The notes under the pieces: generated by a model
Told to the model about the DNA's origin: nothing
Seen by the model: the letters and a program-made list of their open reading frames with translations, nothing else
Database searches by the model: none
Shown here: positions 17,176 through 34,885 of the stretch, piece by piece
Numbering within the stretch: position 1 is the first letter of the stretch
Layout: the number at the start of each line of letters is the position of its first letter
Origin: a virus
IMG/VR virus record: IMGVR_UViG_3300044739_000018
Coordinates: 32,001-96,000 of that record
DNA length: 64,000 nt
Reading direction: 5' to 3' (one strand)
Position numbers and translations under genes: made by a program

Positions 17176-17390
17176 CAGCCTCTCCTTGTGATCTTGTTCT
17201 TGACCAGTGCTAGGGCGTAGAGCGCCGATCCGATGGCCGCGATGACGCCAGCTATCAGCGCCATCGCAAGGCCAAAGGAAAGGAACGCCACAATGATTGG
17301 GATGAACAGGAGGATGAACGGGACAGCGTGGAAGCCAGTGAGCCTGACTGTCGTGGTGCCGTCGTCGTTGCGAATCCTCTGGACTGCCAT
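17175..17390 (-). CDS. Small membrane protein
   Basis: Long hydrophobic stretch; TGATG overlap. Confidence 0.55.
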   Translation of the reverse strand: MAVQRIRNDDGTTTVRLTGFHAVPFILLFIPIIVAFLSFGLAMALIAGVIAAIGSALYALALVKNKITRRG

Positions 17391-18328
17391 CAGTGCTTCA
17401 CCAGTCCGAGCATCTGCACGACGCTGCTCTCGAAGATCTGGAGACGGCTGTGCGTGTTGTCGAGCGTCTGCTCCAACAGGTTGCCGTACTCCTTCGTCTT
17501 GCCGGTGAGGGCGTGGTACTTGTTGAGGTACTCCTGGTACGCCTTCTCCGTGATCTTCTGCCCGCTGGTCTGGATCTCCTGCATCTTGACGAGCAGGCTG
17601 TCGATCTCGTCCGCGGTCTCGGCCTCGAAGGCACGCTGGAGCATTTCCCTCTGCTTGGTGTCGTCCACCAGCGGGAACTCCGAGCACGAGGACCCGTTGC
17701 CGAGTCCGTTCACGAACTCCTCGACGGCCTGGACCTCAGCAGCGAATTCCTCCGGCACGAAGTAAAGGCCGTTGCGAACGACGGTGGCACCGAGTCGGAT
17801 GATGAAGTGGCGCACCCACTCCCGCACCGTGTACCCCGTGACGCTGCCGCGCTGGCTGTTGTACTTCTGCTGCATTTCGGCGGCGATCACGTCGGCCATC
17901 GGGTTGCGGTAACCCGGCAGAGCGAGAGCCTCGAACTTGCCGCCAGCCTTCTCGAACGTCACGTCGTATGCCTGGTCGTAGGTGAGCCTGCGCCCGCCAC
18001 CGTCGACCTGCTCCACGACGATGCGGCGAACGATCTTGCCGTTGCCCTCAGGCACGTCGCGGACGAGGAAGTTCTCGTAGACGTTGGGGTTGCTGGTCGG
18101 CTCCTTCTTGCGCTCGCACTCCTTGGTGACACGCCGGAACGTGTCGGAGTCCTTCGGCATGAGAGGCAGGCTCTTGTCGATGCCTGCGGCCACCAGCCTG
18201 CGCACCACTTCGCTGTGGTCCATGCGCAGGTCGTTGACGGTGTAGTACACCAAGCGGCCGAGGAACATCTGCTTTCCGGCATTGGCCGCGTTGATGAGAC
18301 GCGTCTGCAAGTCGCTGTATGCGCTCAC
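17390..18328 (-). CDS. Hypothetical helical protein (DUF6744-like, tentative)
   Basis: 312-aa ORF with RBS and own promoter; LGRLVYYTV, DTFRRVT, GLYFVP motifs. Confidence 0.65.
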   Translation of the reverse strand: MSAYSDLQTRLINAANAGKQMFLGRLVYYTVNDLRMDHSEVVRRLVAAGIDKSLPLMPKDSDTFRRVTKECERKKEPTSNPNVYENFLVRDVPEGNGKIVRRIVVEQVDGGGRRLTYDQAYDVTFEKAGGKFEALALPGYRNPMADVIAAEMQQKYNSQRGSVTGYTVREWVRHFIIRLGATVVRNGLYFVPEEFAAEVQAVEEFVNGLGNGSSCSEFPLVDDTKQREMLQRAFEAETADEIDSLLVKMQEIQTSGQKITEKAYQEYLNKYHALTGKTKEYGNLLEQTLDNTHSRLQIFESSVVQMLGLVKH

Positions 18329-18397
18329 TGGTATCTCCTGTTCGGTTTGGTTATGTTGGTTATGTTGACGGCTGGCCCCCAGGGATCATGCCTGGGA

Positions 18398-18427
18398 ACG
18401 GTACCGTCAGCAGGTGTTGCTTGTCAA
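18398..18427 (-). promoter_or_regulatory. Sigma70-type promoter
   Basis: TTGACA-N18-TACCGT. Confidence 0.6.
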
Positions 18428-18565
18428 GCGATCATGCCCGAGAAGGGCAGGATCAGGTGCGGTGCGTGTCTTTGAGAATGCAGCACACGGCACAGCAAAA
18501 GCGTTGACGCTCAGCCATCAGGCGCTTGCACTCGGATTCCGTGGCCCCACACTCGGAGCACTTCA

Positions 18566-18802
18566 TCAGTTCAGGCCGTGGACCAGCACGTGGCGCACGT
18601 CGATGAGCAGCGTCTGGAGTTCCCGAATGTCCTTCGGCTCCAAAACGGTGCGGACGGCGCTGGCCTGGAGCCAGGTCTCCACATCCTTGACCAGCCCCTC
18701 GACGGTGACCTCGGGGACCGTGACCTCGACCTCGACAGCGGTGTCTGTCTCCACGCCTTCTGTATCGGCAGGGACAGCCTCGTCAACCAAGCCCTCGGTC
18801 AT
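18566..18802 (-). CDS. Hypothetical acidic protein
   Basis: ATGA overlap. Confidence 0.55.
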   Translation of the reverse strand: MTEGLVDEAVPADTEGVETDTAVEVEVTVPEVTVEGLVKDVETWLQASAVRTVLEPKDIRELQTLLIDVRHVLVHGLN

Positions 18803-19038
18803 ACGGTGTGCCCGAACCCGTCACGGAGCAGCCGACGAGCTGCCTCTGCCAAACGAGCATTGAGCCGGAAGGCATCGCCGGACGGGTGTCCGTTCTCGAT
18901 GTCAACCTTCAACCGACGCAACTTCCCGTGAAGCTCCACTGACCGCTTCGCCTTCTGCTGTGTGCCCAGCATCGAGAGGCTCGACAACTCCTGCTCCAGT
19001 GCCGCCAGGCTCAGCTCGATCTCCGCTGTTGTTGCCAT
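18799..19038 (-). CDS. Stand-alone paralogue of the MoxR ATPase C-terminal helical domain
   Basis: KAKRSVELHGKLRRLKVDIE matches the ATPase tail. Confidence 0.65.
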   Translation of the reverse strand: MATTAEIELSLAALEQELSSLSMLGTQQKAKRSVELHGKLRRLKVDIENGHPSGDAFRLNARLAEAARRLLRDGFGHTV

Positions 19039-19774
19039 CTGCTTCCTCCATGTTCGGTAGTTGGAACGCCTTCATTGCTTCCTTCCGTCCACACTCAGAG
19101 CATAGACGGACACCCTTCTCGTAACGGCTGATTGCGTGCCTGTGTCTCGGGGCTTCCGAGCCACAGTGTCCGCAGACGTAGCTCTTGGGGTGAAACACTG
19201 GCTCCAGGACGAACTCCGAGTAAGCCTCGGTGCCCGACCAGTAGTCGCTGCCCTCGTGGTGCTCGGAGAGCTTGACCGTGAACTCGCCTGTCACGTACTG
19301 CTGAATGAGGTCCCACCGATCCTCTATGTCCACGCAGGCACCAAGAACGTAGCTGTCTCGGCTCTGCTCGGGACCGCTGATGTACTCAGCGGTGCAGTTC
19401 TCTCCTGCCTCGCACGGGTCCTTGCAGTGCAGGTACAGCCGACCTTCCTCGATGGTTACGCCCCACTTGTGGTCCTGCGCCTTGCATGGCCGCTTGTCCT
19501 TCTTGGACCAGGGCTGGACCCAAAGGGGCCAGTACACGCACTCCGGGTAGGTCTCACGCTCCCAGGCGAGAGCGTCAACTACGTCGGCGTTCGACCAAAC
19601 CGGCGCTTCGATCCACTTGTGCTCAGGCCCGCGGCGGTGCCGTGAAAGAGCACCAATCCAGGTGGTCTCGTCGCGTCGCTTCTGATCCCACACCTTGGGT
19701 CCCCACCTGAGGGTCATGCGTTCTGCCCATGCCAGGACGACAGCATGCGGGTCGTCGTAGTTCTCGTCACTCAC
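18902..19774 (-). CDS. Hypothetical Cys-rich protein
   Basis: Long ORF with CxxC pairs; start uncertain. Confidence 0.5.
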   Translation of the reverse strand: MSDENYDDPHAVVLAWAERMTLRWGPKVWDQKRRDETTWIGALSRHRRGPEHKWIEAPVWSNADVVDALAWERETYPECVYWPLWVQPWSKKDKRPCKAQDHKWGVTIEEGRLYLHCKDPCEAGENCTAEYISGPEQSRDSYVLGACVDIEDRWDLIQQYVTGEFTVKLSEHHEGSDYWSGTEAYSEFVLEPVFHPKSYVCGHCGSEAPRHRHAISRYEKGVRLCSECGRKEAMKAFQLPNMEEADGNNSGDRAEPGGTGAGVVEPLDAGHTAEGEAVSGASREVASVEG

Positions 19775-20174
19775 CGCCTCGACCTCCCATTGGATCCGAC
19801 TCTTGAACTTCTGCCGCGGCAAGTTCAGCCTCCATCTTCACGAGCTTGGCAGCGGCGGTCTCGACCTCGCGCATCGTTGGCGCGGGCGCTGCGTGTAGCT
19901 CATCGTGCAGGATCGACTCGGTTTGGTTCTCGGTCTGGAAGTTGCACTCTTGGCACACCCAGGCCCGCGTGGGCGGTGGTCCCATCAGGAGCGGCCGCTT
20001 GCCACAGGTTGCTGCGTGGTGGGTGCCCATGCGAATGTCGTTGAACCCCTTACCACAGCCAGGACACGTGTACTTCTGCGGCTGCTGCGGGTGGAGGGCG
20101 TAGACCACATGGCGCGTCAGTTCGGCATTGTTCCTAAATGCCTGGCCGCAATACACGCAGTCATACGTTGGCAT
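19767..20174 (-). CDS. Tandem C2H2-type zinc-finger protein
   Basis: Three CxxC..F....H..H/C units. Confidence 0.7.
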   Translation of the reverse strand: MPTYDCVYCGQAFRNNAELTRHVVYALHPQQPQKYTCPGCGKGFNDIRMGTHHAATCGKRPLLMGPPPTRAWVCQECNFQTENQTESILHDELHAAPAPTMREVETAAAKLVKMEAELAAAEVQESDPMGGRGGE

Positions 20175-20961
20175 CGGAATTTTGCCCCACCGAGAGTTGG
20201 GAGGTTGAGTGTTGATTCAACATCCCCTTCACGACCTCGGTCTTGCGGGCCTCCAGGTCGATCACTCGCTGTTCCAGAACGGGCGTTAGCGAGAGCACTT
20301 GTGTGACTTCCGCCAGTACGGCCTCGACCTCGGGCAAGTTGCCCGTCTCCACCGTCTCGTCGATGCGAGACAGCAGGGAGGCAAAAGACGACTCGGGGTT
20401 GAGCGCGACAGGAAGCGCGTCATCCATCATGTCGTTGACCTTGTGTCCGTCGTCGGCCTCGCGCTGCATGAGCAGGCGGGCCTTGGCGACCGCGTCCTGC
20501 TTCGTGCGGGCAAGAGTGTGGAGCGAGTAGCCCAGGTGATTGCCCTTGCTGCTCACGCGTCGGACACCCACGGCGTAGTGCTGCATGTTGTACCACTGCG
20601 CGTGGTTCCCGGCCGCCCCCAACAGCCATCCCTTGTAGCGGGTGCCCTTCACGAAATCTTCCGCGCCTGCGTAAGAGCGTGAGAACACGTAGATCTGCCA
20701 CTCGACTCGCGGCTTGCGGACTACGCCAACGGGGATGATCTCGTCGTCAGGCAGGTCCAACGAATCCAGGTGCTGCCGCCAATAGCGGCTTGTGGCCTTG
20801 CCGATCTGGCCGTCCCTCTTGTAGCGGGTGTAGAACTGCGCTCCACAGTCGCAGACCCAGTAGACGTTGTACTGGTTGATCTGCGTCTCAGTCAGACTGT
20901 GCCCTGGCCTGCCAGGGGCGAATCCAACCTCTGCGGCGGTCTTGCCGGTGAGTGTCGCCAT
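20161..20961 (-). CDS. Hypothetical protein
   Basis: 266-aa ORF; TGATG overlap. Confidence 0.6.
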   Translation of the reverse strand: MATLTGKTAAEVGFAPGRPGHSLTETQINQYNVYWVCDCGAQFYTRYKRDGQIGKATSRYWRQHLDSLDLPDDEIIPVGVVRKPRVEWQIYVFSRSYAGAEDFVKGTRYKGWLLGAAGNHAQWYNMQHYAVGVRRVSSKGNHLGYSLHTLARTKQDAVAKARLLMQREADDGHKVNDMMDDALPVALNPESSFASLLSRIDETVETGNLPEVEAVLAEVTQVLSLTPVLEQRVIDLEARKTEVVKGMLNQHSTSQLSVGQNSDANV

Positions 20962-21284
20962 CAGCCGGGCCTCACCAGCGGCTTGACGTTGCTGAACTTC
21001 AAGAAGTCGAAGCTGGGGTCACCCATCTTCTCCGCAGACGGCTCGTCCACAAACTTGAAGAAGGCGGTGGTGATGCCGAGTGCGTCAGCGACCTGGGACA
21101 CAAGGTCTACGCCACCTGAGTCGTAGTCGCCCCAGGTGATGATCTTGTCGTCCAGGTAGAGGTACTGCATCTCGCCCACGTAGTCGTAGTCGAGAACGAT
21201 GTTGATGGTTGCCACGTTGGCCTCCGTTCGGTTTGGTTGGTTGTGAGAGGGGCCGGGGCTTCCCCGCACCGACCCCTCTCACGA

Positions 21285-21563
21285 TCATTTCAGCGGCGGA
21301 TCAGGCGGATACGCGATCTGGAAGATCTCGCTCAAAAGGATCCTCGCCACTCGGGTGAGTTCCTCCTGCTCGGCGTCTACATCAACGCCTGTTTTCGCAA
21401 GCTCGTCCAGATCACGCTTCGCATCCTCCAGCTTCTGGTGAATGCTGATGCCGTGCTTGTTCCTGATCTGCTTGTTGACCTGGCCTGCGTTGAAACGGCG
21501 AAGCAAGTCATCCAGGTCCAGGCCCGCCTGCTCGACGCGAGCGGCGATCTCGGAGACGCTCAT
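21285..21563 (-). CDS. Stand-alone paralogue of the MoxR ATPase C-terminal domain
   Basis: NKQIRNKHGISIHQKLEDAKRDLD...LLSEIF; ATGA-coupled to the VWA gene. Confidence 0.7.
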   Translation of the reverse strand: MSVSEIAARVEQAGLDLDDLLRRFNAGQVNKQIRNKHGISIHQKLEDAKRDLDELAKTGVDVDAEQEELTRVARILLSEIFQIAYPPDPPLK

Positions 21564-23176
21564 GCGCCACCGATTCCGCCGAAGATATCCCGGATATCCT
21601 CGCCGCCCTTCAAGTCCTTGATGGTGAGCACCCGCTTGTCGCAGATGGTTGCCAGAGGCTCGTCGGAGTAGCCGCCGCCGATCATGATGCCCCACACCGT
21701 GAAGCCCATGCGCTCCTGCTCCTTCTTGAACTCCGTCATCCACTGGTCGTTGACGCCGCAGGCACCGTCAGTGGCGAACACAATGTCGCCCTTGACGAAG
21801 CCGTTCTCGTCGAACTCTGCCCGCAGGTGGTCCAGCGAGCGGGACAGCGGCGTCATGAAGTCGGTGCCTCCCATGAAGGAGAACTCCGCCATGTCGATGA
21901 TCTTCTGCGTGTTGTAATCCTCCGGCTTGGAGAAGTCGAACTCCGCGATCTGATGCGTCGACCCGAAGGTGATGGCACGGAACGACCGCTTCTGAGCACG
22001 AGCCAGGTTGAGCAGGCAGAGGCCCACGGCCTTCGCCCACATTTCCGGCTCACCGCTCATGGACCCTGACGAGTCGTCGCAGTAGATGATGCCGCCCTTG
22101 CCGACCTTTTCCTCACCGCGCATCTCGTACTGGAGCAGGTTGCCCTCGATGAACTCCCGGTAGAAGTCCAGCTTCATGAGCGGGTTGCGCAGCTTCGAGA
22201 ACTGGACGGGCAGGACGCGAGCAAGGTCGTTGCCCTTGCCAATGTCGAACACTTCGTCCCTCGCGTGGTTGACCTTCCGACGCTGCTCGGTGAACATGAG
22301 CCGCTTCATCGGGCCGAAAAGCTCCGCGATCTTCTTCAACCGCGGGTTGTTGAGCTTGGCTGCCAGTTCCATGCGCTCCTTGGCGGGCATGCGCTGGAGT
22401 GTTCCCGGCTCCAGGCCCCACGCGTCGCCCTGCGCAGCCATTTCCTGCGCTTCCTTGACGGCGGCACCGAGAGCCTTCTTCATGGTCTGACGGACGGCAG
22501 GCGTCGCGTTCTTCATCGCCTGCTGGAAGTCCTTCGCGTTCTGCATGGCCTGGGCCTTCAACGCCTCCATCTGCTTGTTCAGCAGGGCGCGCTGCTTGTT
22601 CCAGTCCTGTGCCTTCTTCGCGTCCTCCGGGTCGTCCAGATCGAGGTCGTCGATCATTTCGTCCAAGGACCGAAGCTGCTCCTGCTGGTCGTGCAAGTCC
22701 TGGAGCTGCTTCTGCAACTCCTTGGCCTTCTCCTGCTCAGTCTTGAGCCGGTCGTGCAGGGTTTCGAGGTCGGGCCGCATCGCCATGGTGCCCATGGCCG
22801 CGGCAACCTCGTCGCCCACCGTGCCGAGGGAGCGAAGCTCGTCCCATTCCTTCAATTCCATGGCCTCGGAAGTGATGGTGTGGTCGATGACGTACTGCGG
22901 CTGCATGTCGCCCACGTCCTCGTGCTTCGGCTCGACCTTGACCAGTGACCAGTACGTGTCTGACCACAGGGCGTTGCCGGTGTCCACGGTGTCGCAGAAG
23001 CGATCCGCCTCGTTGGCGTACTCCTGCATCTGATCGCGGAGCCGTTCCTCATCCTCCACGTCGTACTTGTCGTGCTGGATCGAGTGCTTCGACAGCTTGC
23101 TCGGGTCGGGTGCGTTACCCGACTTCAAGAACTCGTCGAGGAAGCCCTTCTTCTTGCGCTTGCGCCAGTCTGCCAT
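21560..23176 (-). CDS. VWA domain protein (ViaA/CoxE-like)
   Basis: GNDLARVLP, CDDSSGSMSG, GGTDF, DIVFATDG. Confidence 0.88.
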   Translation of the reverse strand: MADWRKRKKKGFLDEFLKSGNAPDPSKLSKHSIQHDKYDVEDEERLRDQMQEYANEADRFCDTVDTGNALWSDTYWSLVKVEPKHEDVGDMQPQYVIDHTITSEAMELKEWDELRSLGTVGDEVAAAMGTMAMRPDLETLHDRLKTEQEKAKELQKQLQDLHDQQEQLRSLDEMIDDLDLDDPEDAKKAQDWNKQRALLNKQMEALKAQAMQNAKDFQQAMKNATPAVRQTMKKALGAAVKEAQEMAAQGDAWGLEPGTLQRMPAKERMELAAKLNNPRLKKIAELFGPMKRLMFTEQRRKVNHARDEVFDIGKGNDLARVLPVQFSKLRNPLMKLDFYREFIEGNLLQYEMRGEEKVGKGGIIYCDDSSGSMSGEPEMWAKAVGLCLLNLARAQKRSFRAITFGSTHQIAEFDFSKPEDYNTQKIIDMAEFSFMGGTDFMTPLSRSLDHLRAEFDENGFVKGDIVFATDGACGVNDQWMTEFKKEQERMGFTVWGIMIGGGYSDEPLATICDKRVLTIKDLKGGEDIRDIFGGIGGA

Positions 23177-23285
23177 TCAGACCATCCTTCCTATGCGCTT
23201 GGTGTTCGGTTCGGTTGGGGCATCGGAGACGGTGCGCCCATCGGTGCATGGATAAACGCACCGTCTCCGAAGGTCTTGCAGGTTA

Positions 23286-24491
23286 CTACTGGACCTGCGA
23301 GGCGTCGATGCCGAAGATCTCCTTCAGCAGCGTGCGGGTGACGCCCAGCAGACGGGTGTTCAGCTCCGACATGGTGTCGGACTTGCGACCCGTCTTGACG
23401 GCCCGCTTCTCCAGTCCGTCCAGGTCGGCCTTCGCCCGCTCCAGCTTCCCGTGAAGCTCGATGCCCTTCTTGTTCTTGATCTGCTTGTTGTCCGAGTTCT
23501 TGATGACCTCGTCCAGATCGACAGCGAGCTTCTCGACCGTCTCCAGCAGATCCATGGCCTCCTTGTCCAGCGGGTTCGCCAGCTCCAGGACGGCCTTCTC
23601 GACGATGGCCTGCTCGTCGGGACGGGTCCAGAGGACGTGCCGCAGGAGACGCATGTCGTCGATATCCGCGACGGGCCGCTGGCTCATCCAGGCCGTGGCC
23701 TTGATGATCTTCAAGCACTCCGCGAAGCGACGGTCGGTCGGCTCGATGCCCTCCTTGCGCAAGTTGTTGCGCAGGGTGTTCATCGCGTCGAGCACGTCGT
23801 CGTTGACGTTGACCGCCTGGGACTCGACCTGAGCCTGGACGATCTCGTCCCACGTCACGATGGCCTGGGGCGCACCGGCGACCTGGAGCTTCAACATCTG
23901 GAGGAAGTTGCCCGCCTCCTGGATGGGACGCACGATGTGACGGAAGTGGACCCGGTCGTACATCGCTTCGAGTTCCTCACCCTGCGGCAGCTCGTTGCTG
24001 GCGCAGAACAGGGTCGAGAGCGGCACGTTGATCGGCACGTCGTTGTAGAAGATCCGCTCGTTCATGATGGTCAGGAGCGAGTTGAGGATCGACGAGTTGG
24101 CCTTGAAGATCTCGTCCACGAAGGCCAGCTTCGCCGTGGGCAGCATGCCCTTGACGTTGCGCCGGTACTCGTCGTTCTCCAGGGCCGTGAGGCTCGGGGG
24201 ACCGAACAGTTCCTCGGGGGTCGAGAAGCGGGTGACCAGACGCTCGAAGTACTCGTCCGGGCCGATCCCGCCGATGTGCGCCTTCATCGTGCGCACGAGC
24301 CGCGACTTCGCCGTTCCGGGCGAGCCGAGCTGGAAGTGGTGCACGCCGCCGATGACGGCGATGGTGCCCGTCATCGTCTCCTTCGACCGCTCGACCAACT
24401 CGCTGTTCAGCGTGTCGATCAGCAGTTCGAACTTGGCCTGGAGCGGCGCAGGGGCCGCGGCAGGAGCGGGCGTGGTGGTGGTGTCGCTCAA
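23286..24491 (-). CDS. MoxR/RavA-family AAA+ ATPase
   Basis: GSPGTAKS, STPEELFGP, FVDEIFKANSSILNSLL, ASNELP, YDR; TTG start with GGAGG RBS. Confidence 0.92.
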   Translation of the reverse strand: MSDTTTTPAPAAAPAPLQAKFELLIDTLNSELVERSKETMTGTIAVIGGVHHFQLGSPGTAKSRLVRTMKAHIGGIGPDEYFERLVTRFSTPEELFGPPSLTALENDEYRRNVKGMLPTAKLAFVDEIFKANSSILNSLLTIMNERIFYNDVPINVPLSTLFCASNELPQGEELEAMYDRVHFRHIVRPIQEAGNFLQMLKLQVAGAPQAIVTWDEIVQAQVESQAVNVNDDVLDAMNTLRNNLRKEGIEPTDRRFAECLKIIKATAWMSQRPVADIDDMRLLRHVLWTRPDEQAIVEKAVLELANPLDKEAMDLLETVEKLAVDLDEVIKNSDNKQIKNKKGIELHGKLERAKADLDGLEKRAVKTGRKSDTMSELNTRLLGVTRTLLKEIFGIDASQVQ

Positions 24492-24537
24492 TTTTCCTCC
24501 ATGGGTGTTGGTTTGGTTGGGTGGTTGGACTGCTTGG

Positions 24538-24566
24538 ACCCTACGGGTCTGTGCAGGTTGAGTCAA
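24538..24566 (-). promoter_or_regulatory. Sigma70-type promoter of the MoxR-VWA operon
   Basis: TTGACT-N17-TAGGGT. Confidence 0.6.
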
Positions 24567-24645
24567 GCATTTCGTGAGGAGAAAGCCGATTTCCACAGGC
24601 CGCGGCAGGTTATCCACAGCCGTTGGTGCTTTCGCTCAACGAACG

Positions 24646-25173
24646 TTACTCCGTGTCGCTGTCCTCGACGACTGGCAGGACAGGCGTCCTGTTGAACAGC
24701 CGTTGGGTGAGGTAGGGGATGAAAAGGTCCAGGAAGACTTCCGCCGAAGTTGCCGGGACGTGGATGGCCCAGGTTCGCGGCGGGGTGCCATAACCAGGGT
24801 TGACGTTGACATCCTCGACGCCGTGAAGTTGCAACAGGTCGTGGAGACGGGTCCAGGGTTCCGCGGCCTTTTCGGCTGCTTGCTGGTTGAGCTTGGCCTG
24901 GATGTCCTTCTTTGCCTGCTCGAACCGCTTTTCCTCGACACCTTCCTCTACTTGCTCCCATGGCTTGATCTTGCGGCTGGAGCACTTGATCGTCGAGGGG
25001 TTGCCCTGGCCGTCCTTGATGGGACTCCAGTCGTCATCCATCAATGTCAGCGTGTGTAGGGCGTCGTAGCCGTCGCTGCTGTCGATGTACTTGACCTGCG
25101 CCTTGCGAGCAGCGGAGTGTTTACGCGGGACGTATGCGACTCTCATTCCGTACCGCATCTGTCGTCGGTTCAC
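24646..25173 (-). CDS. Hypothetical protein
   Basis: GTGA overlap. Confidence 0.55.
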   Translation of the reverse strand: MNRRQMRYGMRVAYVPRKHSAARKAQVKYIDSSDGYDALHTLTLMDDDWSPIKDGQGNPSTIKCSSRKIKPWEQVEEGVEEKRFEQAKKDIQAKLNQQAAEKAAEPWTRLHDLLQLHGVEDVNVNPGYGTPPRTWAIHVPATSAEVFLDLFIPYLTQRLFNRTPVLPVVEDSDTE

Positions 25174-25469
25174 GGCAGGGTTGGCTCCACGTCTGCTTCC
25201 TCCTCTGTTGTTCCGTCGCGCAGCTTGCTGCGCATTTCGTAGTCGGCGGGAAGGTCGAACCTCTTGCTACAGATCCCACACATGAGGATCTCGCCCTGGA
25301 TGTTGCTGTCGAACGCCTTCTTGTCGTGAGCCAGGAACTTGCCGTTGTCCTCCACGTGGTAGAAGAACTCGTTGTTCCTGACGAGCACGAAGCTGCCCGC
25401 ATGGCCCTCGGGGCAACGCAGCACCGGAATTGATGCCAGCAGCCTGCTGATTTCGTCTTGCTCGCTCAC
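25170..25469 (-). CDS. Hypothetical Zn-ribbon protein
   Basis: CPEGH...CGIC; GGAGG RBS. Confidence 0.55.
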   Translation of the reverse strand: MSEQDEISRLLASIPVLRCPEGHAGSFVLVRNNEFFYHVEDNGKFLAHDKKAFDSNIQGEILMCGICSKRFDLPADYEMRSKLRDGTTEEEADVEPTLP

Positions 25470-25855
25470 TCAGTACCTCCTTCCAGGCTCTCGTGAAGCT
25501 CCATGAGCTTCTCCACTGTGCCATCAATGTCATCGGGCGTCACCTTGATGGCGACGATGTTCTCGACGTTGAGGATCGTGCGCAGCCGTGCCCTGCCACT
25601 CTTGGTCTTTTGCCAGGAGTACGCCTTCTTGGGCGCGCCATCAGGTGTGACCTCAGTAAGCGTGACCGAGCAGGATGGCTTCCCGCTGCGCATGATCGGC
25701 TTGCCCTCTGAGTTATTGCGGTTGATGCGCTCCACGATGCCGAACCGCAGGTCAGCGGAGCTTCCGGACACGGCGGCGTAGGCCACAAGATCACCGGGGC
25801 CATACGCTGTCCCCAAAGGATCACTCCAGCCCGGCCATTCCTCTTTCTTAGGCAA
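25466..25855 (-). CDS. Hypothetical SH3-like protein
   Basis: D.LG....PGDLVAY motif. Confidence 0.55.
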   Translation of the reverse strand: MPKKEEWPGWSDPLGTAYGPGDLVAYAAVSGSSADLRFGIVERINRNNSEGKPIMRSGKPSCSVTLTEVTPDGAPKKAYSWQKTKSGRARLRTILNVENIVAIKVTPDDIDGTVEKLMELHESLEGGTE

Positions 25856-26168
25856 GATCAGCCTCCAGCTTTCGTAGCGAGTTCACGACTTCCGCGATGT
25901 CAGCGTCGGTCGTGGAGACCGGATAGACCATCGCTACACCCTTGTGGTCTGGGCCAAGCCCGCTGGCCGTTGGGTGGTTTTCGATGCCAGCGTCACGCCG
26001 CCAGTTGTAGACCTCCTTGCACGAGGCACAAGTGGAGTTGTGCTGGCCCCACCAGTGCTCTCGCTTGCCGTGTTGGCCCCGGCATCCTGCCTCCTTGGAG
26101 CACAACTCGGGGCACACTGTCACTTCCTCGCCGCCCCACAGTGATCTGCGTTCGGTGGGATACTTCAC
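25848..26168 (-). CDS. Hypothetical protein
   Basis: Packed ORF. Confidence 0.5.
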   Translation of the reverse strand: MKYPTERRSLWGGEEVTVCPELCSKEAGCRGQHGKREHWWGQHNSTCASCKEVYNWRRDAGIENHPTASGLGPDHKGVAMVYPVSTTDADIAEVVNSLRKLEADLA

Positions 26169-26410
26169 GCCAGGTCCTTCTCCATGGAGAGCAGCTTGTT
26201 GATGGCAGCCTGCACTTCGTTGTCGGTGGGCAGAGTGCCTACCTCCGCGACGCTCAGCTCTTGCACGGCCTCCAGGATTTCCTCCTGGGTGACACCTTCG
26301 GATTGCAAGCGGAGGATGTACTCCGGGTCCCGAAGGCCGACAATGATCTCGTCAGTCGTGCAGTCGTACACACGCCAGCGGTCAACGTCGAACGCAATGC
26401 GGGAGTTCAT
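26165..26410 (-). CDS. Hypothetical protein
   Basis: ATGA overlap with ligase. Confidence 0.55.
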   Translation of the reverse strand: MNSRIAFDVDRWRVYDCTTDEIIVGLRDPEYILRLQSEGVTQEEILEAVQELSVAEVGTLPTDNEVQAAINKLLSMEKDLA

Positions 26411-27228
26411 ACTGCTACCTGCTTGTTGGTGAAGGTGCCGTCAAGCTGGGCGATCATGCACTCCAGCGGCGACTTGTCGGTGCGCTGCCGGATCAGGCGG
26501 GGCTGCACGAGCCGAGGCTTGTCGGGGTTGACGCAGTAGAGGAACTTGACCTCAATTACGTCGCCAACTTTCAGGTCATTACCGCGCTTTCCGATGATCG
26601 AGGACTTGCCTATTTCGACAATTTTTCCGTCCTTGAACACGCCATAGGCGCAATTGTCCTTGCCGTCAACGTGCATTCTGGTGACGATGGCGTCCACCGT
26701 CTTGACGAACTTGTGTTTGCGCATGATGTCCACGCGTCTGCCGGGACGGTAGGTGCCATCGAGCTTCTTGAACATGACACCTTCGCAGTCCTTCGCGAGC
26801 ATTTCGTCCAGGAGGGCACGCTTGTCAGCCTCATCCTTGGCGCAGACCGAGAGCTGGATGCAGTCGGATGGTGCCCACTTGGCAAAGAACACTTCCAGAG
26901 CCTTACGCCTGGTCCTGTACGGCGTGTTCAGGCCGATGTGCGTGCCAGCGACGGGAAGGTCGAACACAACCAGGGTGTCCCCGATCATTTCTCCGTCCCA
27001 GACCCAGGTGCCGGTGGTGAAGGCGCGGAACTCGGCGGCCAGTCTCGGCGGCAGGATGGTGCGGCTGGAGTCCCGGCCGCGGAGAGCGGTGATCTCACCA
27101 TCTTCGATGTGGACCATGTAGCGCACGCCGTCGTACTTGCGCTCCGCCCACCACTCGTCAGACGTGAGGTAGAACTCGGAACGATTTGACTCGGCGTTGT
27201 TCGCCATCATGGGGCTAAGCAAATCCAT
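26407..27228 (-). CDS. Minimal ATP-dependent DNA ligase
   Basis: ERKYDGVR (motif I), WDGE, VFD, EGVMFK, OB-fold with QPR. Confidence 0.92.
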   Translation of the reverse strand: MDLLSPMMANNAESNRSEFYLTSDEWWAERKYDGVRYMVHIEDGEITALRGRDSSRTILPPRLAAEFRAFTTGTWVWDGEMIGDTLVVFDLPVAGTHIGLNTPYRTRRKALEVFFAKWAPSDCIQLSVCAKDEADKRALLDEMLAKDCEGVMFKKLDGTYRPGRRVDIMRKHKFVKTVDAIVTRMHVDGKDNCAYGVFKDGKIVEIGKSSIIGKRGNDLKVGDVIEVKFLYCVNPDKPRLVQPRLIRQRTDKSPLECMIAQLDGTFTNKQVAV

Positions 27229-27509
27229 GTTGCTCCCTTCGGTTCAGTTCGTTCGCCATGTCTGCCAGCTTCATGGCGACATGGGCCAGTTGTTCCTCGG
27301 TGATGACCTCGGTGACTACGCTGTCGAGGTGACAGGAGCACACACACGGCGGGCTACCTGCCCTTTTGATGATGCCGTCGCACTTCCCGTGCGAGCTGAC
27401 CTGTGAGCAATTGCCCTGTGCCTGGTTGTGCCAGTGTTCACACGCCGCCTTGCCGAGCCTCTGATACTCGGTAAGCCACGTGCCACAGACCGTGCAGTGG
27501 TAGTGGTCG

Positions 27510-27962
27510 TTAGAACTCAAGACCAAACGCCTTCCGCTCTCGGCGCTTCTGTCGCCACTTCCTCATGTACTCGCGTCGTTCCTCGGTACAAGAAGGCGTG
27601 GACGGGCAGTCGGCCTTGCTGCGGCAGCCGTAGGTGTAGCCGGTGACGGTGCCGTGGGGAATCTGCTCCGCCGTGTGGTTGTGCTCACCGTTGACGCAGT
27701 TCTCATGCGAGGCACCGTGCTTTCGGTAGTCGCGTGGTGCGGGCTTGGCGAAGAACGGCTTGACCAGGTGTGAGTCGGGATCGTTGAGGATCTGGAACAC
27801 ACGTTGACGTGAGACGCCGTAAATCTTGCCGATGGCCTCCAACGTCCAGTGCTTGTCCCGCAGCAACTTCATGTGCTGGTTCCGCTCGGCTAGTTCGCGC
27901 CGTACCGCCATGACGGCATCGAACTTTGCCTGCGAAGCCAGCTCGCGATCCCGCCGATTCAC
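27510..27962 (-). CDS. HTH (sigma region-4-like) DNA-binding protein
   Basis: WTLEAIGKIYGVSRQRVFQIL; HGTVTGYTYGCR motif. Confidence 0.75.
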   Translation of the reverse strand: MNRRDRELASQAKFDAVMAVRRELAERNQHMKLLRDKHWTLEAIGKIYGVSRQRVFQILNDPDSHLVKPFFAKPAPRDYRKHGASHENCVNGEHNHTAEQIPHGTVTGYTYGCRSKADCPSTPSCTEERREYMRKWRQKRRERKAFGLEF

Positions 27963-28272
27963 TGGCCCCGAGTTACGTCACGCCAGCGGGCATCGACCTC
28001 TTTGGCCGACCCGCCGTACCGCCTGCGACGCGTTGTCTCGCCCCACCCAAAGCAAGCTGCTCCGACGCCAGCGCAGGCCCAGAAGATGATGCCGCCCACC
28101 GCGCTGGCACAGAAGATGCGGACGAGGCCGAAAGCGATCCGGCCTGCGTCAGTGGGGTTGGCCTTGGCTCCGTCCACGACGGCAACGATGCCGCCAATGA
28201 ACAGGATGTAGAAGCCCACGTAGAAGCCGAGGACGACTCCTGCGAGGATGAACAGAACTCCGAGGATGTACT

Positions 28273-28572
28273 TCACATTCTCTCCTGTCGCATGGTGGGG
28301 TCGCTCTCCATCCACCTGGGGGTCTTGGGATCTTTGGCGACGCGGGACTCCAACTCCAGCTTCGCCTGTTCGAGCCGTCGTCCGAGCGCCACGTAGTCGG
28401 TCTGCTCCTGCAACTCGCGCAGGGACTTGTCGAGGTAGTCAGACTTCTCGCGCTCCAGTGCCCACCGCTTGCGGTCCAACTCCAACTTGCGTTCCTTGGG
28501 ATGGACGATGCCGCTGTACGCGGCAGCGATGAGGGCGAGAGCGATGATGGTCAGACAGATCGTGAGAATCAT
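28273..28572 (-). CDS. Membrane-anchored coiled-coil protein
   Basis: N-terminal TM segment. Confidence 0.55.
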   Translation of the reverse strand: MILTICLTIIALALIAAAYSGIVHPKERKLELDRKRWALEREKSDYLDKSLRELQEQTDYVALGRRLEQAKLELESRVAKDPKTPRWMESDPTMRQERM

Positions 28573-28732
28573 CAGACCTCCGTGGTGTCCGCCACGAGCA
28601 GCACGGCGGGGATGATGTCGTCGATGCCGGGGTCAAGGCCGCACTCGGTGACGGGATACACGTCCAGGGCCTCCACCCAAACGGGCAGGTTTCCGTCGTG
28701 CTCCTGGAGTGCTGCGATCAGTTCGCTGACAG

Positions 28733-29113
28733 TCATGATGCCTCCTGCTCCGGGTTGGTGTCGGGAAGCTGTCCCTTCATGAGATCCTGCGCCATGCGCA
28801 GAGCCGAAGCGGCAGCGTCGTCCACTTTCTTTTCTTCCTCGGACTTCTGCTGGCCCTTCATCATTTCCTCGAACGCGGCGTTGACCTCGTCCGCGTCATC
28901 GAGGCGCTCGTGCTCAGGCGTCTGCTCCCGAGTTGCCTCGGCAGCCACCGCCTTCTGGGCGTCCTCGTCGAAGATGAACATGGCTTGGACCATGTGCGGG
29001 CCGTTGTCCATGTTCGGGAGTACTGCGAAGGTGTGCAGTTCCAGACCGGCTTCCTTTGCGACCTTCTCCAGATGCTCACAGAGCTTCTTGATCGGGTCCA
29101 TCGGGTCTGCCAA
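28733..29113 (-). CDS. Hypothetical acidic protein
   Basis: Packed ORF. Confidence 0.55.
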   Translation of the reverse strand: MADPMDPIKKLCEHLEKVAKEAGLELHTFAVLPNMDNGPHMVQAMFIFDEDAQKAVAAEATREQTPEHERLDDADEVNAAFEEMMKGQQKSEEEKKVDDAAASALRMAQDLMKGQLPDTNPEQEAS

Positions 29114-29611
29114 TTACTTCACCGCCTTTCGGGTACGGGCCTTGGGGGCCGCCTTGGGTGTGGGTGTGGGCGGAGTTTCGTCCAGCGTCGACATGTTGAT
29201 GCCGAAGATCCCAGCCAGCAATGCCGAGGTCACGGTGTGGAGCAGCTCAGCGGCGAGGCGCACCTGGGGCACATCCCTGGAGTGGTCACCGATGGCCCTC
29301 TCGATGCGGTCCAAGTCGGACTTGGCACGCTCGATCTTGCCGTGAAGCTCGATGCCCCGCTTGTTCTTCATCTGCTTGTTCTCGCTGCCGTTGATGCACT
29401 CGTCCAGAGCGACGGCAAGGTGCTGGACCGTCGTGACGAGTTCCTGAGCCTCGACGTAGGCGTTGGCGGTCGTAGTCAGCGGCGGTGGCTGGGCGATGTT
29501 GACCAGGCGGGCGAGTGCGTCAGCGAAGTCGATGGGCTTTGCGGGCGGTGTTGCGGTCGTGTCGAGGACGCCTTCGACTGCGACGACTTGTACGTCGAGA
29601 ATGACCTTCAT
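29114..29611 (-). CDS. Stand-alone paralogue of the MoxR ATPase C-terminal domain
   Basis: LDECINGSENKQMKNKRGIELHGKIERAKSDLD...LLAGIFGI nearly identical to the ATPase tail. Confidence 0.8.
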   Translation of the reverse strand: MKVILDVQVVAVEGVLDTTATPPAKPIDFADALARLVNIAQPPPLTTTANAYVEAQELVTTVQHLAVALDECINGSENKQMKNKRGIELHGKIERAKSDLDRIERAIGDHSRDVPQVRLAAELLHTVTSALLAGIFGINMSTLDETPPTPTPKAAPKARTRKAVK

Positions 29612-29991
29612 GACTGCTCCTTGTTTTTCAGTTCGGTTGCCAGGGCTTGTAGGGACAGGCTGGTGGCGAGGACACTCTCGAAGGGAAGCCCGTCGTAGAG
29701 CACGCCACCATTCTGCTTGTTGTTGTATTCGATGCGGTCGATCTTGTCGGTTTCGAGCACCATGAATCCGCTGCTGTTGCGGGTGCCGGTGTAGATGCCC
29801 GGGCTGTAGAGCTTGCCGTTGGGCACGGTGATGGCACCGAACCTGCCGCGGTGCTCCGTGCCATCGTCCATTGTGATCTTCATGATCGGCTTCGGGTCCT
29901 GCTTCTTGGCCCACATGAACACGTCGATCACGTCTTTGGGTGTGGCATCAGGAAAGACGATGCCACCCGAGCTGCCTTGCACGATGGGCAT
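29608..29991 (-). CDS. Hypothetical protein
   Basis: Overlapping start/stop. Confidence 0.55.
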   Translation of the reverse strand: MPIVQGSSGGIVFPDATPKDVIDVFMWAKKQDPKPIMKITMDDGTEHRGRFGAITVPNGKLYSPGIYTGTRNSSGFMVLETDKIDRIEYNNKQNGGVLYDGLPFESVLATSLSLQALATELKNKEQS

Positions 29992-30480
29992 TACGGTTCC
30001 ACGACTTCGTAGCCGGGGATGTAGCCGACTTCCACCAGCCACTTCGCAACTGCCTCGGGACCGTTGGCGGCGATCTTGGCAAGTTCATGGTTCATGGCGT
30101 CCTGCGCCAAGTCCCAGAGGTCGCCTTCATCCAGAATCTCGTCGGGATCGTCGGTTACGTGGATCTTCACGTGTACTTCTCCTTGATCTTGGTGATCTCA
30201 TGCTCGTCCAGGCGTGCTTCGATCTCCTTCACGCGGGCGGCGAGGCAGATGATGCACTGGTCGTTCAGGACCCCATGAGGACAAGCCGCTGCTGGCTTTG
30301 AGGACACCCGACGCCTGGGAACGGACGTTGGTACTTGTCCGGTTGCCTGCAACATGCGCTGGTGCTCGGCCTGGTCAATGAGGGCAGCCAAAGCCGAGGA
30401 ACCCTCGACCGTTTCCCCTGCGGCTTCCAGTTCTTTGCGCCGCTCTTGTGCCCGCCTGAGCAGGCGCTCAGGAATCTCGG

Positions 30481-30729
30481 TCACCGGATCTGTTCACACC
30501 TGTTGAGCGGGAAGTTGCTCAGCAGGTCTGGGTAGCCATCACCCGAGACGTGATCGTCGTAAACGTCCCTTGGCACCCAATAGATCGAAGCGCCGGGCAC
30601 GTAGCGTGCCAGCGTCTCGATATCGAGGTAGTCGGGCTTGGCCTGGTCGTGAACCCGTCCGTCCACGTACACAGCGTTGTAGCTATCGCTCTGCACGAGG
30701 ACGGTACGGGTGCCATTGGGCAGGTCCAC
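30481..30729 (-). CDS. Hypothetical protein
   Basis: TAGTG overlap with Ku. Confidence 0.55.
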   Translation of the reverse strand: MDLPNGTRTVLVQSDSYNAVYVDGRVHDQAKPDYLDIETLARYVPGASIYWVPRDVYDDHVSGDGYPDLLSNFPLNRCEQIR

Positions 30730-31529
30730 TAGCTGACAGCCTCGATGCTGGCAGCGAGCAGCGCCTCGAAGTCCTGCTCCGGCGAACGCTTGGGAGTGGA
30801 CGGCGTGCTGGAAGCGGGCACCGGAGCACCCATCTTGGCAGCGACCAACTCAGCGATGCGCTGGCGGGTCTTGCTGGCGTAGTCGCCCGGATCGAACGCC
30901 TCGGCCAGCGTCTCGATGAACTGGAGCGCCTTCTGGACGGTCTTGTCCTCGACCGTGGCCGAGTCGGTGCTGATCCCGTTCACGTCCTCGGGCCGGAGAA
31001 GCTCGGTGACGACGAGGTTGCCGTTCCATGCCCGCAGCCGCACCAGCTTGGTGCCACCCCGGCTCATCGCGATCTCACCCAGGAAGGCGTACTCGGCGTC
31101 CGGGTCCTGCAAGATGGCGAGGAGAACAGCGTGAAGCTGGTTCTTGGCCGAGGGGATGAAGGCGTACGAGTTACCCAGCGGGTAGGTGTACGGCTCCACT
31201 TCCTCGATTTTGTGCGGGACGAGGACGAGCATGCCCTTGTCCAACTCCGACTTCTTGGCCTCCGCGACCTCGTCGGCGTCGACCAGCACGTAGTTGTCCT
31301 TGCTGGTCTCACGCATCCGGCCACACTCGCCGGTCTTGCCGATGACGCCGTGCTGCTCACAGATGTAGGTCTGCGAGACACCGTGGGCGTCAGCGACGGT
31401 GGAGTGAGGACAGGCCAGCTTGAAGCCTTCCTCCTTGTCTGCACCCGACCGCTTGATCGGGTAGAAGTCGCCCTGCATCTGCATCAGCGGACCCAGGGAG
31501 ATTGTTACGTTGCTCTGCGCCTTGCGCAT
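30729..31529 (-). CDS. ku: Ku-like DNA end-binding protein
   Basis: N-terminal TISLGPL, YVLVDADEV, FDPGDY..KTRQRIAELV..K, C-terminal DFEALL.AS. Confidence 0.8.
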   Translation of the reverse strand: MRKAQSNVTISLGPLMQMQGDFYPIKRSGADKEEGFKLACPHSTVADAHGVSQTYICEQHGVIGKTGECGRMRETSKDNYVLVDADEVAEAKKSELDKGMLVLVPHKIEEVEPYTYPLGNSYAFIPSAKNQLHAVLLAILQDPDAEYAFLGEIAMSRGGTKLVRLRAWNGNLVVTELLRPEDVNGISTDSATVEDKTVQKALQFIETLAEAFDPGDYASKTRQRIAELVAAKMGAPVPASSTPSTPKRSPEQDFEALLAASIEAVS

Positions 31530-31602: not shown

Positions 31603-32142
31603 TCACCAGGCCATGTATTTCGGTCGTGTCTCGTCGGTGAGCCACTCCAGGCTGACTGGCTTGCCGCTCAACACTCGTTGGCAGATTTGGTTGTCGCAGC
31701 GGTGGGCTTCCTCGGCCATGCGAGTTGCCCAGCGTGCCAGGCTGGCATCATCGCCACCACGGCTTGTATTGCAGCGGTGGCAGGCAATGACGAGGTTCGC
31801 GTTGTCGTTGCCACCACCGTTGCGCCGCGAGACAAGGTGCTCGATGGTCCGCATGTTGCGCTTCGTGATGCCCGCTGTGGAGGGAAGCGGTGGCCTCAGG
31901 ACGTGTGTCTCCACGCCACACCAATGGCAGTTCGGGCCGTCACGAGCAACGAGCTTCTCGGCCTTGCGGCCCGCCCAGCCCATGCTGTTCGTGCCACCGA
32001 CTGTGCGCTCGTTCTTGAGCTTCTTGCGGCTTACAAGGCCGCAGTTGCCACAGTAGTACCGGCTGCTGCCCCGGAGGATGGTGTGATCGGGATGACCGCG
32101 GCAGGGCTGGTCGTCGAAAATGCCGCGGTACTCATTCGCCAT
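31603..32142 (-). CDS. HNH endonuclease
   Basis: RDGPNCHWCG...TIEHLVSRRNGG....NLVIACHRCN. Confidence 0.9.
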   Translation of the reverse strand: MANEYRGIFDDQPCRGHPDHTILRGSSRYYCGNCGLVSRKKLKNERTVGGTNSMGWAGRKAEKLVARDGPNCHWCGVETHVLRPPLPSTAGITKRNMRTIEHLVSRRNGGGNDNANLVIACHRCNTSRGGDDASLARWATRMAEEAHRCDNQICQRVLSGKPVSLEWLTDETRPKYMAW

Positions 32143-33730: not shown

Positions 33731-34885
33731 TCAACCCGTGCCCTTGTAGTTCAGCACCTGATGGAGCGTGTGCTCGATCTTGACGAGATCCTTCTGATCC
33801 TCCATCACCTTGTCGATGTCCTTATACGCACCGGGCGACTCGTCGATGAGCGAGCCAGCATCCCGCGACTGCCAGGTCTTGCCCTTCATGGCAGCCTTCA
33901 AGTCGTCCCTCGTGAACATCTCCTTCGCCCTCTTGCGGGAGAACCTGCGTCCTGCTCCATGCGAGCAGGAGTTCCACGACAACGGGTTGCCGAGACCGCT
34001 CACGATGTAGCTGCGGGTGCCCATGGAGCCAGGGATGACGCCGAGCCTGCCAGTGTCAGCCTGGATGGCTCCCTTGCGGGTGATCCAAAGCTCCTGGCCG
34101 TCGTGCGTCTCCTGCTGCGTGAAGTTGTGGTGGCAGTTGATCCGCTGCCGCTCCTGGCCGGTGCCGACGAAGCTGAGCACTTCCTTCAACGCTGCTTCCA
34201 TCATCTGCTGACGGTTCGCCATGGCGTACTCCTGCGCCCACAGCATGTCAGCGATGTAGAAGCTGAACTCGGGGGTTCCCTGTGTGAAGTACGCCAGGTC
34301 GGGATCTTCGAGCTTCTCGCCCATGGCCTTCGCCATCTGCTTCGCGATCTTGATATGGCCGGAGGCAAGCTGGTTGCCGATGCCACGGCTACCGCTGTGC
34401 AGCACGACCCACACGGTGCCGCGCTCGTCGATGCACAACTCGAAGAAGTGGTTGCCCGAGCCAAGCGAGCCGAACTGCACGTGGGCCTTCTTGGCCTGGT
34501 CGCCGGTGAGCGGGTGCTTGTGGGCACCCATCCAGGCGTCCGCTGCCCGCGTGGAGTCAGCGTGCCACTTGCCCAGACCAGCAGGAACAACTTTCTCGAT
34601 CCTGCTCAGCAGCGGCTCCAAGTTGTCGGGAAGCTGGCCCTCGGTGAGCTTCAACTCAGATGCAATCATGCCGCACCCAATGTCCACGCCCACCGCTGCG
34701 GGCATGACGGCGTTCTTGGTGGGGATGACAGACCCGACTGTGGCCCCGATGCCGACGTGTGCGTCAGGCATGAGGGCGACATGGCCCTCCACAATCTTCA
34801 TGCGCGATGCCTTCTGCGCCTGGATGACGGTGCCTTCGTCGATATCCGACGCCCAGTTCAGGAGTCGGTCGTTGATCTTCTGCAT
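33731..34885 (-). CDS. rtcB: RtcB-family RNA ligase
   Basis: MPDAHVG, VGVDIGCG, GSLGSGNHF, HSGSRG, HHN, RKGA, PGSMG, HGAGR. Confidence 0.96.
   Translation of the reverse strand: MQKINDRLLNWASDIDEGTVIQAQKASRMKIVEGHVALMPDAHVGIGATVGSVIPTKNAVMPAAVGVDIGCGMIASELKLTEGQLPDNLEPLLSRIEKVVPAGLGKWHADSTRAADAWMGAHKHPLTGDQAKKAHVQFGSLGSGNHFFELCIDERGTVWVVLHSGSRGIGNQLASGHIKIAKQMAKAMGEKLEDPDLAYFTQGTPEFSFYIADMLWAQEYAMANRQQMMEAALKEVLSFVGTGQERQRINCHHNFTQQETHDGQELWITRKGAIQADTGRLGVIPGSMGTRSYIVSGLGNPLSWNSCSHGAGRRFSRKRAKEMFTRDDLKAAMKGKTWQSRDAGSLIDESPGAYKDIDKVMEDQKDLVKIEHTLHQVLNYKGTG

Follow-up and report, generated by a model that had tools for sequence, protein, structure and literature searches.

A soil phage (IMG/VR virus record IMGVR_UViG_3300044739_000018, complete, 163,481 bp with direct terminal repeats) encodes a MoxR/RavA-like AAA+ ATPase, and the C-terminal three-helix tail of this ATPase recurs in three small open reading frames (ORFs) dispersed around the genes for the ATPase and its ViaA-like, VWA-domain partner. 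All of these lie in the window analyzed here, a stretch of 64,000 nucleotides (nt) that comprises bases 32001–96000 of the record. An earlier note on this DNA had described the small ORFs as stand-alone copies of the ATPase C-terminal domain, and that description is correct. The safest statement about their nature is that they are functional, mobile, free-standing versions of the motor's leg domain. We number them copies 2, 3 and 4, after the source domain in the ATPase; homologous proteins carry P numbers and the contigs or loci that encode them L numbers. Positions are those of the window unless stated otherwise.

23286–24491, minus strand: MoxR/RavA-like AAA+ ATPase (P0001), 401 amino acids counted from the TTG at 24491; the ORF as listed is 23286–24617
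23304–23573, minus strand: C-terminal three-helix tail of the ATPase, the source domain (P0001 residues ~349–438; profile match at genome positions 55304–55558), carrying the GRKS loop
29114–29611, minus strand: copy 2, 165 amino acids, with a ~50-amino-acid N-terminal extension, the tail domain (DNA 29198–29449) and a basic Pro/Lys/Ala tail
21285–21563, minus strand: copy 3, a 92-amino-acid stand-alone tail-domain protein whose ATG overlaps the TGA of the VWA gene (ATGA)
18799–19038, minus strand: copy 4, a 79-amino-acid stand-alone tail-domain protein with GGAGGA five bases before its ATG
21560–23176, minus strand: ViaA-like VWA partner, 538 amino acids; its gene follows the ATPase stop after 109 nt

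Detection of the repeated tail

The recurring part is the last ~85 residues of the ATPase. In BLASTP comparisons with the ATPase, copy 2 is 54% identical over 89 amino acids (expect value, E, 3e-23), copy 3 is 47% identical over 81 (E 9e-15) and copy 4 is 40% identical over 58 (E 6e-9). DNA identity to the ATPase tail in the motif core is 80% over 124 nt, 81% over 78 nt and 81% over 31 nt. We also searched the six-frame translation of the genome (all 163,481 bp) with a hidden Markov model (HMM) built from 59 family members of other contigs, none of them from this phage or its two closest relatives. Exactly these four ORFs, that of the ATPase included, matched (E 7.5e-30, 4.5e-21, 1.7e-17 and 6.2e-13; next best 3.2), so the genome holds four copies and no more. 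Both methods bear out the claim of the earlier note that the tail recurs at these places. All four coordinates hold, and the divergent copies are significant too, down to copy 4 in BLASTP and the lowest of the HMM matches. The ~100 residues that follow the ATPase lid had no match in Pfam, PHROG, NCBIfam or PADLOC.

Coding potential and selection

All three small ORFs look like genuine genes. Their reading frames are intact, each has a start codon, and third-position GC within them is 0.74–0.82, like that of neighboring genes. The ATG of copy 2 is preceded by a Shine-Dalgarno sequence, AAGGAG, and overlaps (as ATGA) the stop codon of the ORF at 29608–30042. Compared with its orthologue in contig L005, copy 2 has a ratio of nonsynonymous to synonymous substitution rates (dN/dS) of 0.52, far above that of the ATPase (0.06–0.23) or the VWA protein (0.04–0.19). 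Its C terminus (29114–29200) is a Lys/Ala/Pro-rich basic tail of a kind that also ends P0005, P0027, P0033 and P0043, and these tails resemble histone-like or Ku-type DNA-binding extensions. Copies 3 and 4 have no basic tail.

Copy 4 overlaps a longer ORF.

18902–19822, minus strand: 306-amino-acid zinc-ribbon ORF; its last 137 nt overlap copy 4 (18902–19038; 13943–14079 in L014)

Near position 19050, the third-position GC signal moves from the frame of the 306-amino-acid ORF to that of copy 4, and it is low in the tail frame of the overlapping ORF. Against the orthologue in L014, copy 4 has a dN/dS of 0.135 overall and 0.016 in the part that does not overlap; within the overlap, the copy 4 frame has a dN/dS of 0.22 and the other frame one of 2.7. 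Copy 4 is missing from L005, and there the orthologue of the longer ORF has 259 amino acids, 47 fewer, and stops just past an EEAD motif. The substitution ratios in the overlap, the GC switch and the shorter L005 orthologue together show that copy 4 is the gene under (purifying) selection and that the extension of the 306-amino-acid ORF is unselected read-through arising from the presence of copy 4. A different explanation, that copy 4 is a frameshifted C terminus of the longer ORF, was rejected on three grounds: copy 4 starts with an ATG and a GGAGGA of its own, the L005 orthologue of the longer ORF stops at the position at which copy 4 starts, and no frame but that of copy 4 shows selection. 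In L014, gene callers retained the longer ORF and overlooked copy 4, so genes of this type are probably under-annotated in databases.

Could the copies nonetheless be functionless by-products of illegitimate recombination within the phage genome? Their presence differs among close relatives (see below), copy 4 overlaps its neighbor by 137 nt and is uncalled in L014, and no relative of copy 3 closer than the stand-alone protein P0014 (~33% identity) was found, all of which could be expected of decaying sequence. However, the frames are intact with proper starts and gene-like third-position GC, copy 4 has the low substitution ratios given above, the family signature is preserved in all three copies, and stand-alone lineages persist across distantly related phages. 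As the selection data in particular make decay unlikely, we regard this explanation as very improbable.

The ATPase and its VWA partner

Judged by profile comparison, the ATPase–VWA pair is a distant analogue of RavA–ViaA. The ATPase matches the Pfam families bpMoxR (PF20030; E 6e-43, 146.7 bits, cut-off 27), AAA_5 (68.5 bits, cut-off 22) and AAA_lid_8 (57.1 bits, cut-off 22.8), the domains spanning residues 66–343. It has Walker A (GSPGTAKS) and Walker B (FVDEIF) motifs, with G56, P58, G59, K62, D126 and E127 invariant in 14 homologues. The NCBIfam RavA model (NF010054) matches with E 5e-52 and 177.5 bits, under its equivalog cut-off of 681, and the match stops at profile position 339 of 498. 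A RavA orthologue would be recognized by an equivalog-level score and a LARA domain, and the phage ATPase has neither.

In an AlphaFold2 model made with a 14-row alignment (mean predicted local distance difference test score, pLDDT, 88), three helices follow the lid (307–332, 336–367 and 372–392), and there is no beta domain. The best match to this model in the PDB is E. coli RavA (3nbx, Z 34.3). On RavA chain 6q7l_W (Z 29.9, root-mean-square deviation 3.0), model residues 14–378 align with chain residues 3–481, so the alignment extends into the C-terminal helices of RavA.

The most likely start of the ATPase is the TTG at 24491, which has GGAGGA upstream (at −11), rather than the ORF start at 24617; 42 ORF codons (24491–24617, minus strand) precede it. 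This extension contains TTGACT, and the 155-nt gap that follows the upstream gene may hold a promoter. A promoter and terminator scan gave counts not above those in shuffled sequence.

The VWA protein matches the NCBIfam ViaA model (E 2.8e-22, 79.6 bits, equivalog cut-off 500) with residues 152–470 on profile positions 86–425, and it matches phrog_24053 (E 5e-71). The residues of its metal-ion-dependent adhesion site (MIDAS), D368, S370, S372, T438 and D470, are invariant in 25 homologues, and at least 298 homologues occur in metagenomes. The ATPase homologue P0040 (741 amino acids) and several VWA homologues (~875 amino acids, Pfam PF14528; P0079, P0086, P0087, P0135 and P0140) look interrupted by inteins or homing endonucleases, which suggests that selfish elements often target the ATPase and VWA genes of this phage group.

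As in E. coli RavA, the AAA+ core and AAA_lid_8 are followed at the same position by a three-helix leg, and the gene is paired with that of a ViaA-like VWA protein. Unlike RavA, which is encoded by a cellular gene, the phage-encoded ATPase has no LARA; a short loop joins helices 1 and 2, and helix 2 begins with a conserved basic motif. Free-standing paralogues of the triple-helical (3H) bundle are not known for RavA, and E. coli RavA–ViaA has nothing like a competing free 3H domain. Although the homology between ViaA and the phage VWA protein is distant, the matched profile span takes in both the middle domain (ViaA K192–H311) and the VWA domain, and the MIDAS is intact in the phage protein. 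ViaA and its middle domain stimulate RavA and LARA-less RavA but not the AAA+ domain alone, and from these truncation assays the authors concluded that the middle domain acts via the 3H bundle (J Biol Chem 2023, PMC10585395). The middle-domain span matched by the phage VWA protein therefore provides a concrete candidate ligand for the tail domain. A complex prediction that paired the VWA protein (25 alignment rows) with copy 3 (40 rows) scored 0.00, which speaks neither for nor against binding.

Fold of the tail domain

AlphaFold, given a 40-row alignment, predicts copy 3 to be a three-helix bundle (pLDDT 94.8; predicted template modelling score, pTM, 0.81). The model superposes on the discontinuous triple-helical bundle of RavA (3nbx residues 299–497, LARA skipped) with Z 8.9, root-mean-square deviation 2.7 and 79 aligned residues. 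What marks a RavA-type 3H bundle is seen in the tail, namely three antiparallel helices directly after the AAA+ lid that can be superposed on RavA 3H, a Z of 8.9 by itself being unspecific for helical bundles. In RavA terms, the tail corresponds to a 3H bundle from which the LARA insert is missing.

The superposition of copy 3 on RavA speaks for compatibility, not specificity. A structure search with the copy 3 model, in which Z under ~13 is unspecific for helical bundles, listed generic bundles, with BAG domains first and RavA at rank 33. The BAG domains (4hwh and 4hwi) had the top score, Z 11.0, with root-mean-square deviation 1.9 and 78 aligned residues. Like the copies, which would act on MoxR, BAG is a small helical bundle on an ATPase chaperone, in its case the ATPase domain of Hsp70. 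However, the two ATPases are of different classes, the identity is 13–15% with no sequence relationship, and the likeness is one of shape only; a Pfam BAG match was absent at E ≤ 0.1. Foldseek found no match to the copy 3 model in the PDB or BFVD at E ≤ 0.001, and when the domain alignment was run as a profile against PDB sequences, designed helical repeats and coiled coils were the only matches.

The domain family in other phages

The tail domain is also found in other phages. A profile search of 1.84 billion representative proteins (E < 1e-3) recovered a family of at least 54, made up of ATPase tails and of stand-alone, tandem and fusion forms. In the ATPases, which are ~400 amino acids long, the domain lies at the C terminus, P0040 being broken by its intein-like insert. 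Many members are stand-alone proteins of 83–175 amino acids, and three (P0013, P0016 and P0022) are two-domain tandems. In P0037, the domain is fused downstream of an rIIB-like part, and P0043 looks similar; P0027 and P0033 combine it with an Rv2632c-like domain. Both kinds of partner occur adjacent to the tail domain as well as fused to it. At L012:7974–11730, a 676-amino-acid gene, which may be the counterpart of rIIA, is followed by an rIIB-like protein with a tail domain and then by an Rv2632c-like gene. Rv2632c-like and rIIB-like genes were also sought in the genome of the phage itself, with empty and uninformative results.

Members align over ~81 positions in three helices. Their signature has two parts: helix 2 opens with [RK]-N-[KR]-x-G-[IV]-E-x-H-G-K-L-E-R, and helix 3 closes with L-L-x-E-[IV]-F-G-I-D. 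Near-invariant among 40 sequences are the His of the first part and, in the second, the Phe and the second Leu of L-L. Copies 2–4 preserve the signature, with Ser for Glu in copy 3 and G-F for I-F in copy 4.

The loci that carry extra domain genes are varied.

L004, L005, L006: copy 2 orthologue P0005 at the syntenic place
L007: P0014, between the ATPase and VWA genes
L009, L010: a tandem protein and a weak third gene
L012: an rIIB-like fusion
L015: an Rv2632c-like fusion
L017: a weak extra copy

In each contig of sufficient length (L004/5, L007, L009, L012, L014, L015 and L017), the MoxR–VWA pair lies within 10 kb of the domain genes. L008, which is too short to show the motor, has three domain genes within 3.9 kb. 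A DNA ligase upstream and a DUF6744 gene downstream are usual at these loci, and the latter encodes the third conserved member of the module.

17390–18328, minus strand: DUF6744 protein (Pfam PF20529, E 3.6e-46)

The MoxR, VWA and DUF6744 genes are co-located and co-oriented in the window (17390–24491), and the same arrangement is seen in L007, L009, L014, L015 and L017. The order ligase-...-MoxR-VWA-...-DUF6744 is kept in L004/5, L009, L012, L014, L015, L016 and L017. Our literature search for DUF6744 or bpMoxR found no paper.

Two IMG/VR relatives of the ATPase (38–39% identity) and Moorella phage MTATph1 had no detectable stand-alone copies and at most a weak tail match (E 0.02–0.15). A tblastn search of GenBank phages and a pattern search of IMG/VR, both with copy 2, gave no match.

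Copying, gain and loss

A maximum-likelihood tree of 66 domains (85 columns) is poorly resolved and has some informative nodes. Copy 2 and P0005 form a pair (100/99) that stands beside the ATPase tails of its own lineage (88/83), copy 4 groups with its L014 orthologue and P0048 (97/84), and copy 3 pairs with P0014 (87/82). Elsewhere in the tree, the ATPase P0008 pairs with the stand-alone P0052 (96/98), and the domain of the L012 rIIB-like fusion pairs with the tail of the L012 ATPase itself, to which it is 86% identical over 91 columns. These pairings of ATPase tails with stand-alone or fused copies indicate that the 3′ end of the ATPase gene has been copied into new genes recurrently and that some stand-alone lineages are old. 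Copy 2 is probably the youngest of the three, copies 3 and 4 belonging to older stand-alone lineages found in other phages. Thus, of the repeated duplication suggested in the earlier note, recurrent copying stands, as seen with copy 2 and, independently, the L012 fusion, but a simple series of duplications within this genome does not fit the placement of copies 3 and 4.

The closest relative, L014 (80–91% nucleotide identity; VWA protein 98% identical), has copy 4 and lacks copies 2 and 3. For copy 3, the break in homology matches the ORF, with the alignment running to window position 21557 and resuming at 21286. L005 has copy 2 but neither copy 3 nor copy 4. The copies are gained and lost among close relatives as single-gene cassettes. 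The four copies found here are the most seen in any genome, equalled only by L009, which has four domains in three genes.

How might the copies act?

We compared the 22 ATPase tails of the family with its other 44 domains, which are stand-alone or fused. The loop that joins helices 2 and 3, G-R-K-S, has a conservation of 0.73–1.0 in the tails and 0.12–0.40 in the other domains, whereas the helix-2 and helix-3 signature is conserved in both sets alike. From the helix order, we infer that the GRKS loop lies at the AAA+ ring end of the leg and the shared signature at the far end, where in RavA the substrate-binding LARA sits between helices 1 and 2.

One model can be envisioned as follows. The 3′ end of the ATPase gene would have been copied out, repeatedly in this phage group, to give free-standing leg genes. 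Their products keep R-N-K-x-G-I-E-x-H-G-K-L-x-R and L-L-x-E-I-F-G-I-D and have lost the GRKS loop, which presumably contacts the AAA+ body. Through the shared signature, the copies would bind whatever the tip of the ATPase leg binds, be it the middle region of the ViaA-like VWA protein or a client of the machine, and so act in trans on the MoxR–VWA(–DUF6744) machine. The longer forms and fusions (copy 2 and the rIIB-like and Rv2632c-like proteins) could be adaptors that tether other proteins to the machine, and the minimal forms (copies 3 and 4) could be competitors of the motor that tune it. This is the reading we prefer, tentatively and with slightly more doubt than belief. Of the roles named in the earlier note, those of adaptor or decoy would be plausible by analogy with RavA–ViaA; a dominant-negative role has no specific support. 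Two findings back the adaptor or decoy idea indirectly: the tail matches the RavA bundle that published ATPase assays connect with ViaA action (PMC10585395), and the copies retain the signature of the ATPase tails without their GRKS loop. Should the copies indeed compete for the docking site of the motor or extend it, an AAA+ machine would be regulated in an unusual manner, by paralogues of one of its own domains.

Several points weigh against this model. The contact between RavA 3H and ViaA is inferred in the literature from ATPase assays, not from a structure (PMC10585395). The distal placement of the signature is read from helix order, and its invariant His and Phe may serve to pack the core and not to bind a partner. 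The three-helix bundle is a generic fold, and with the copy 3 model designed bundles and BAG domains score at least as well as RavA 3H (Z 11.0 versus 8.9). The fast evolution of copy 2 (dN/dS 0.52) suits an arms-race or relaxed role as well as that of a housekeeping adaptor, and some related phages, such as L016, have the ATPase tail only, which means that the core machine can do without stand-alone copies.

It is also possible that the free copies pack onto the legs of the ATPase hexamer, 3H against 3H, and cap the legs or bridge proteins to the motor without involving the VWA partner or a shared third ligand. Helical bundles often oligomerize, and both the tandem proteins (P0013, P0016 and P0022) and the clusters of three or four domain genes in L008 and L009 suggest that the domains act in groups. 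The near-identity of the L012 rIIB-like fusion to the tail of its own ATPase would likewise be favored by like-with-like pairing. Nevertheless, copy 3 is predicted to be a closed monomeric bundle (pTM 0.81), and in published RavA hexamers the legs reportedly splay outward, with no leg–leg contacts reported. We therefore consider self-association unlikely.

Alternatively, the bundle may be a portable module for another target, such as DNA, the nucleoid, the membrane or a host defense protein. The copies would act on that target themselves, for example as inhibitors, and the ATPase would use the same module for its own targeting. The Lys/Ala/Pro-rich tails of copy 2, its orthologues and several fusions are typical of DNA-binding extensions, the start of helix 2 is strongly basic, and genes for DNA transactions (ligase, Ku-like, HNH and RtcB) are abundant nearby. 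Neither of the fusion partners, rIIB-like or Rv2632c-like, is a chaperone component, and fast evolution and patchy presence are what might be expected of accessory or counter-defense genes. Such a role independent of MoxR is hard to reconcile with the MoxR–VWA pair lying within 10 kb of the domain genes at every locus large enough to judge, and with the translational coupling of copy 3 to the VWA gene. In addition, the Pfam and PADLOC searches gave no PADLOC match and detected no known DNA-binding family. On balance, we doubt that the copies work apart from the motor.

A bolder form of the preferred model, in which the copies act in trans through the ligand of the ATPase leg, is that the MoxR motor is re-targeted by exchangeable adaptors that stem from its own leg. 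Every such 3H module, whether stand-alone, tandem or linked to an rIIB-like or Rv2632c-like protein, would plug another client or location into the same VWA/ATPase docking site. We think it improbable that the system goes this far. If it does, it would be an adaptor system made by exapting a piece of an AAA+ enzyme, and phages would swap cassettes to change the targets of remodelling.

MoxR–VWA pairs are widespread, and their choice of clients is poorly understood. Natural free-standing copies of the leg, which vary in length, appendages and fusion partners and differ between near-identical phages, are ready reagents for finding the ligand of the leg. Some of the small genes around MoxR–VWA–DUF6744 are paralogues of the ATPase tail and part of the system. 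With at least 54 representative clusters, this unannotated domain family is suitable for a Pfam or PHROG entry.

Genome setting

GC content is ~61%, and from 15 to 35 kb of the window almost every gene is on the minus strand. A 12-kb region had no megablast match among GenBank phages. The MoxR module is flanked by genes for DNA transactions, and an ORF of unknown function lies upstream of copy 2.

26407–27228, minus strand: ATP-dependent DNA ligase
30729–31529, minus strand: weak Ku-like protein (PF02735, E 1e-4)
31603–32142, minus strand: HNH-like protein
33731–34885, minus strand: RtcB
29608–30042, minus strand: 144-amino-acid ORF, unknown function, with the ATGA overlap of translational coupling to copy 2

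Pfam and PHROG searches with the 144-amino-acid ORF were without match. This ORF is kept in L014 (85% nucleotide identity) despite the absence of copy 2 there.

Finally, and unusually for a phage, a 135-amino-acid protein encoded at 19767–20174 (minus strand) has a C2H2 zinc finger of the classical type (PF00096, E 2.5e-7); its counterpart in L005 is a 98-amino-acid zf-C2H2_6 gene.

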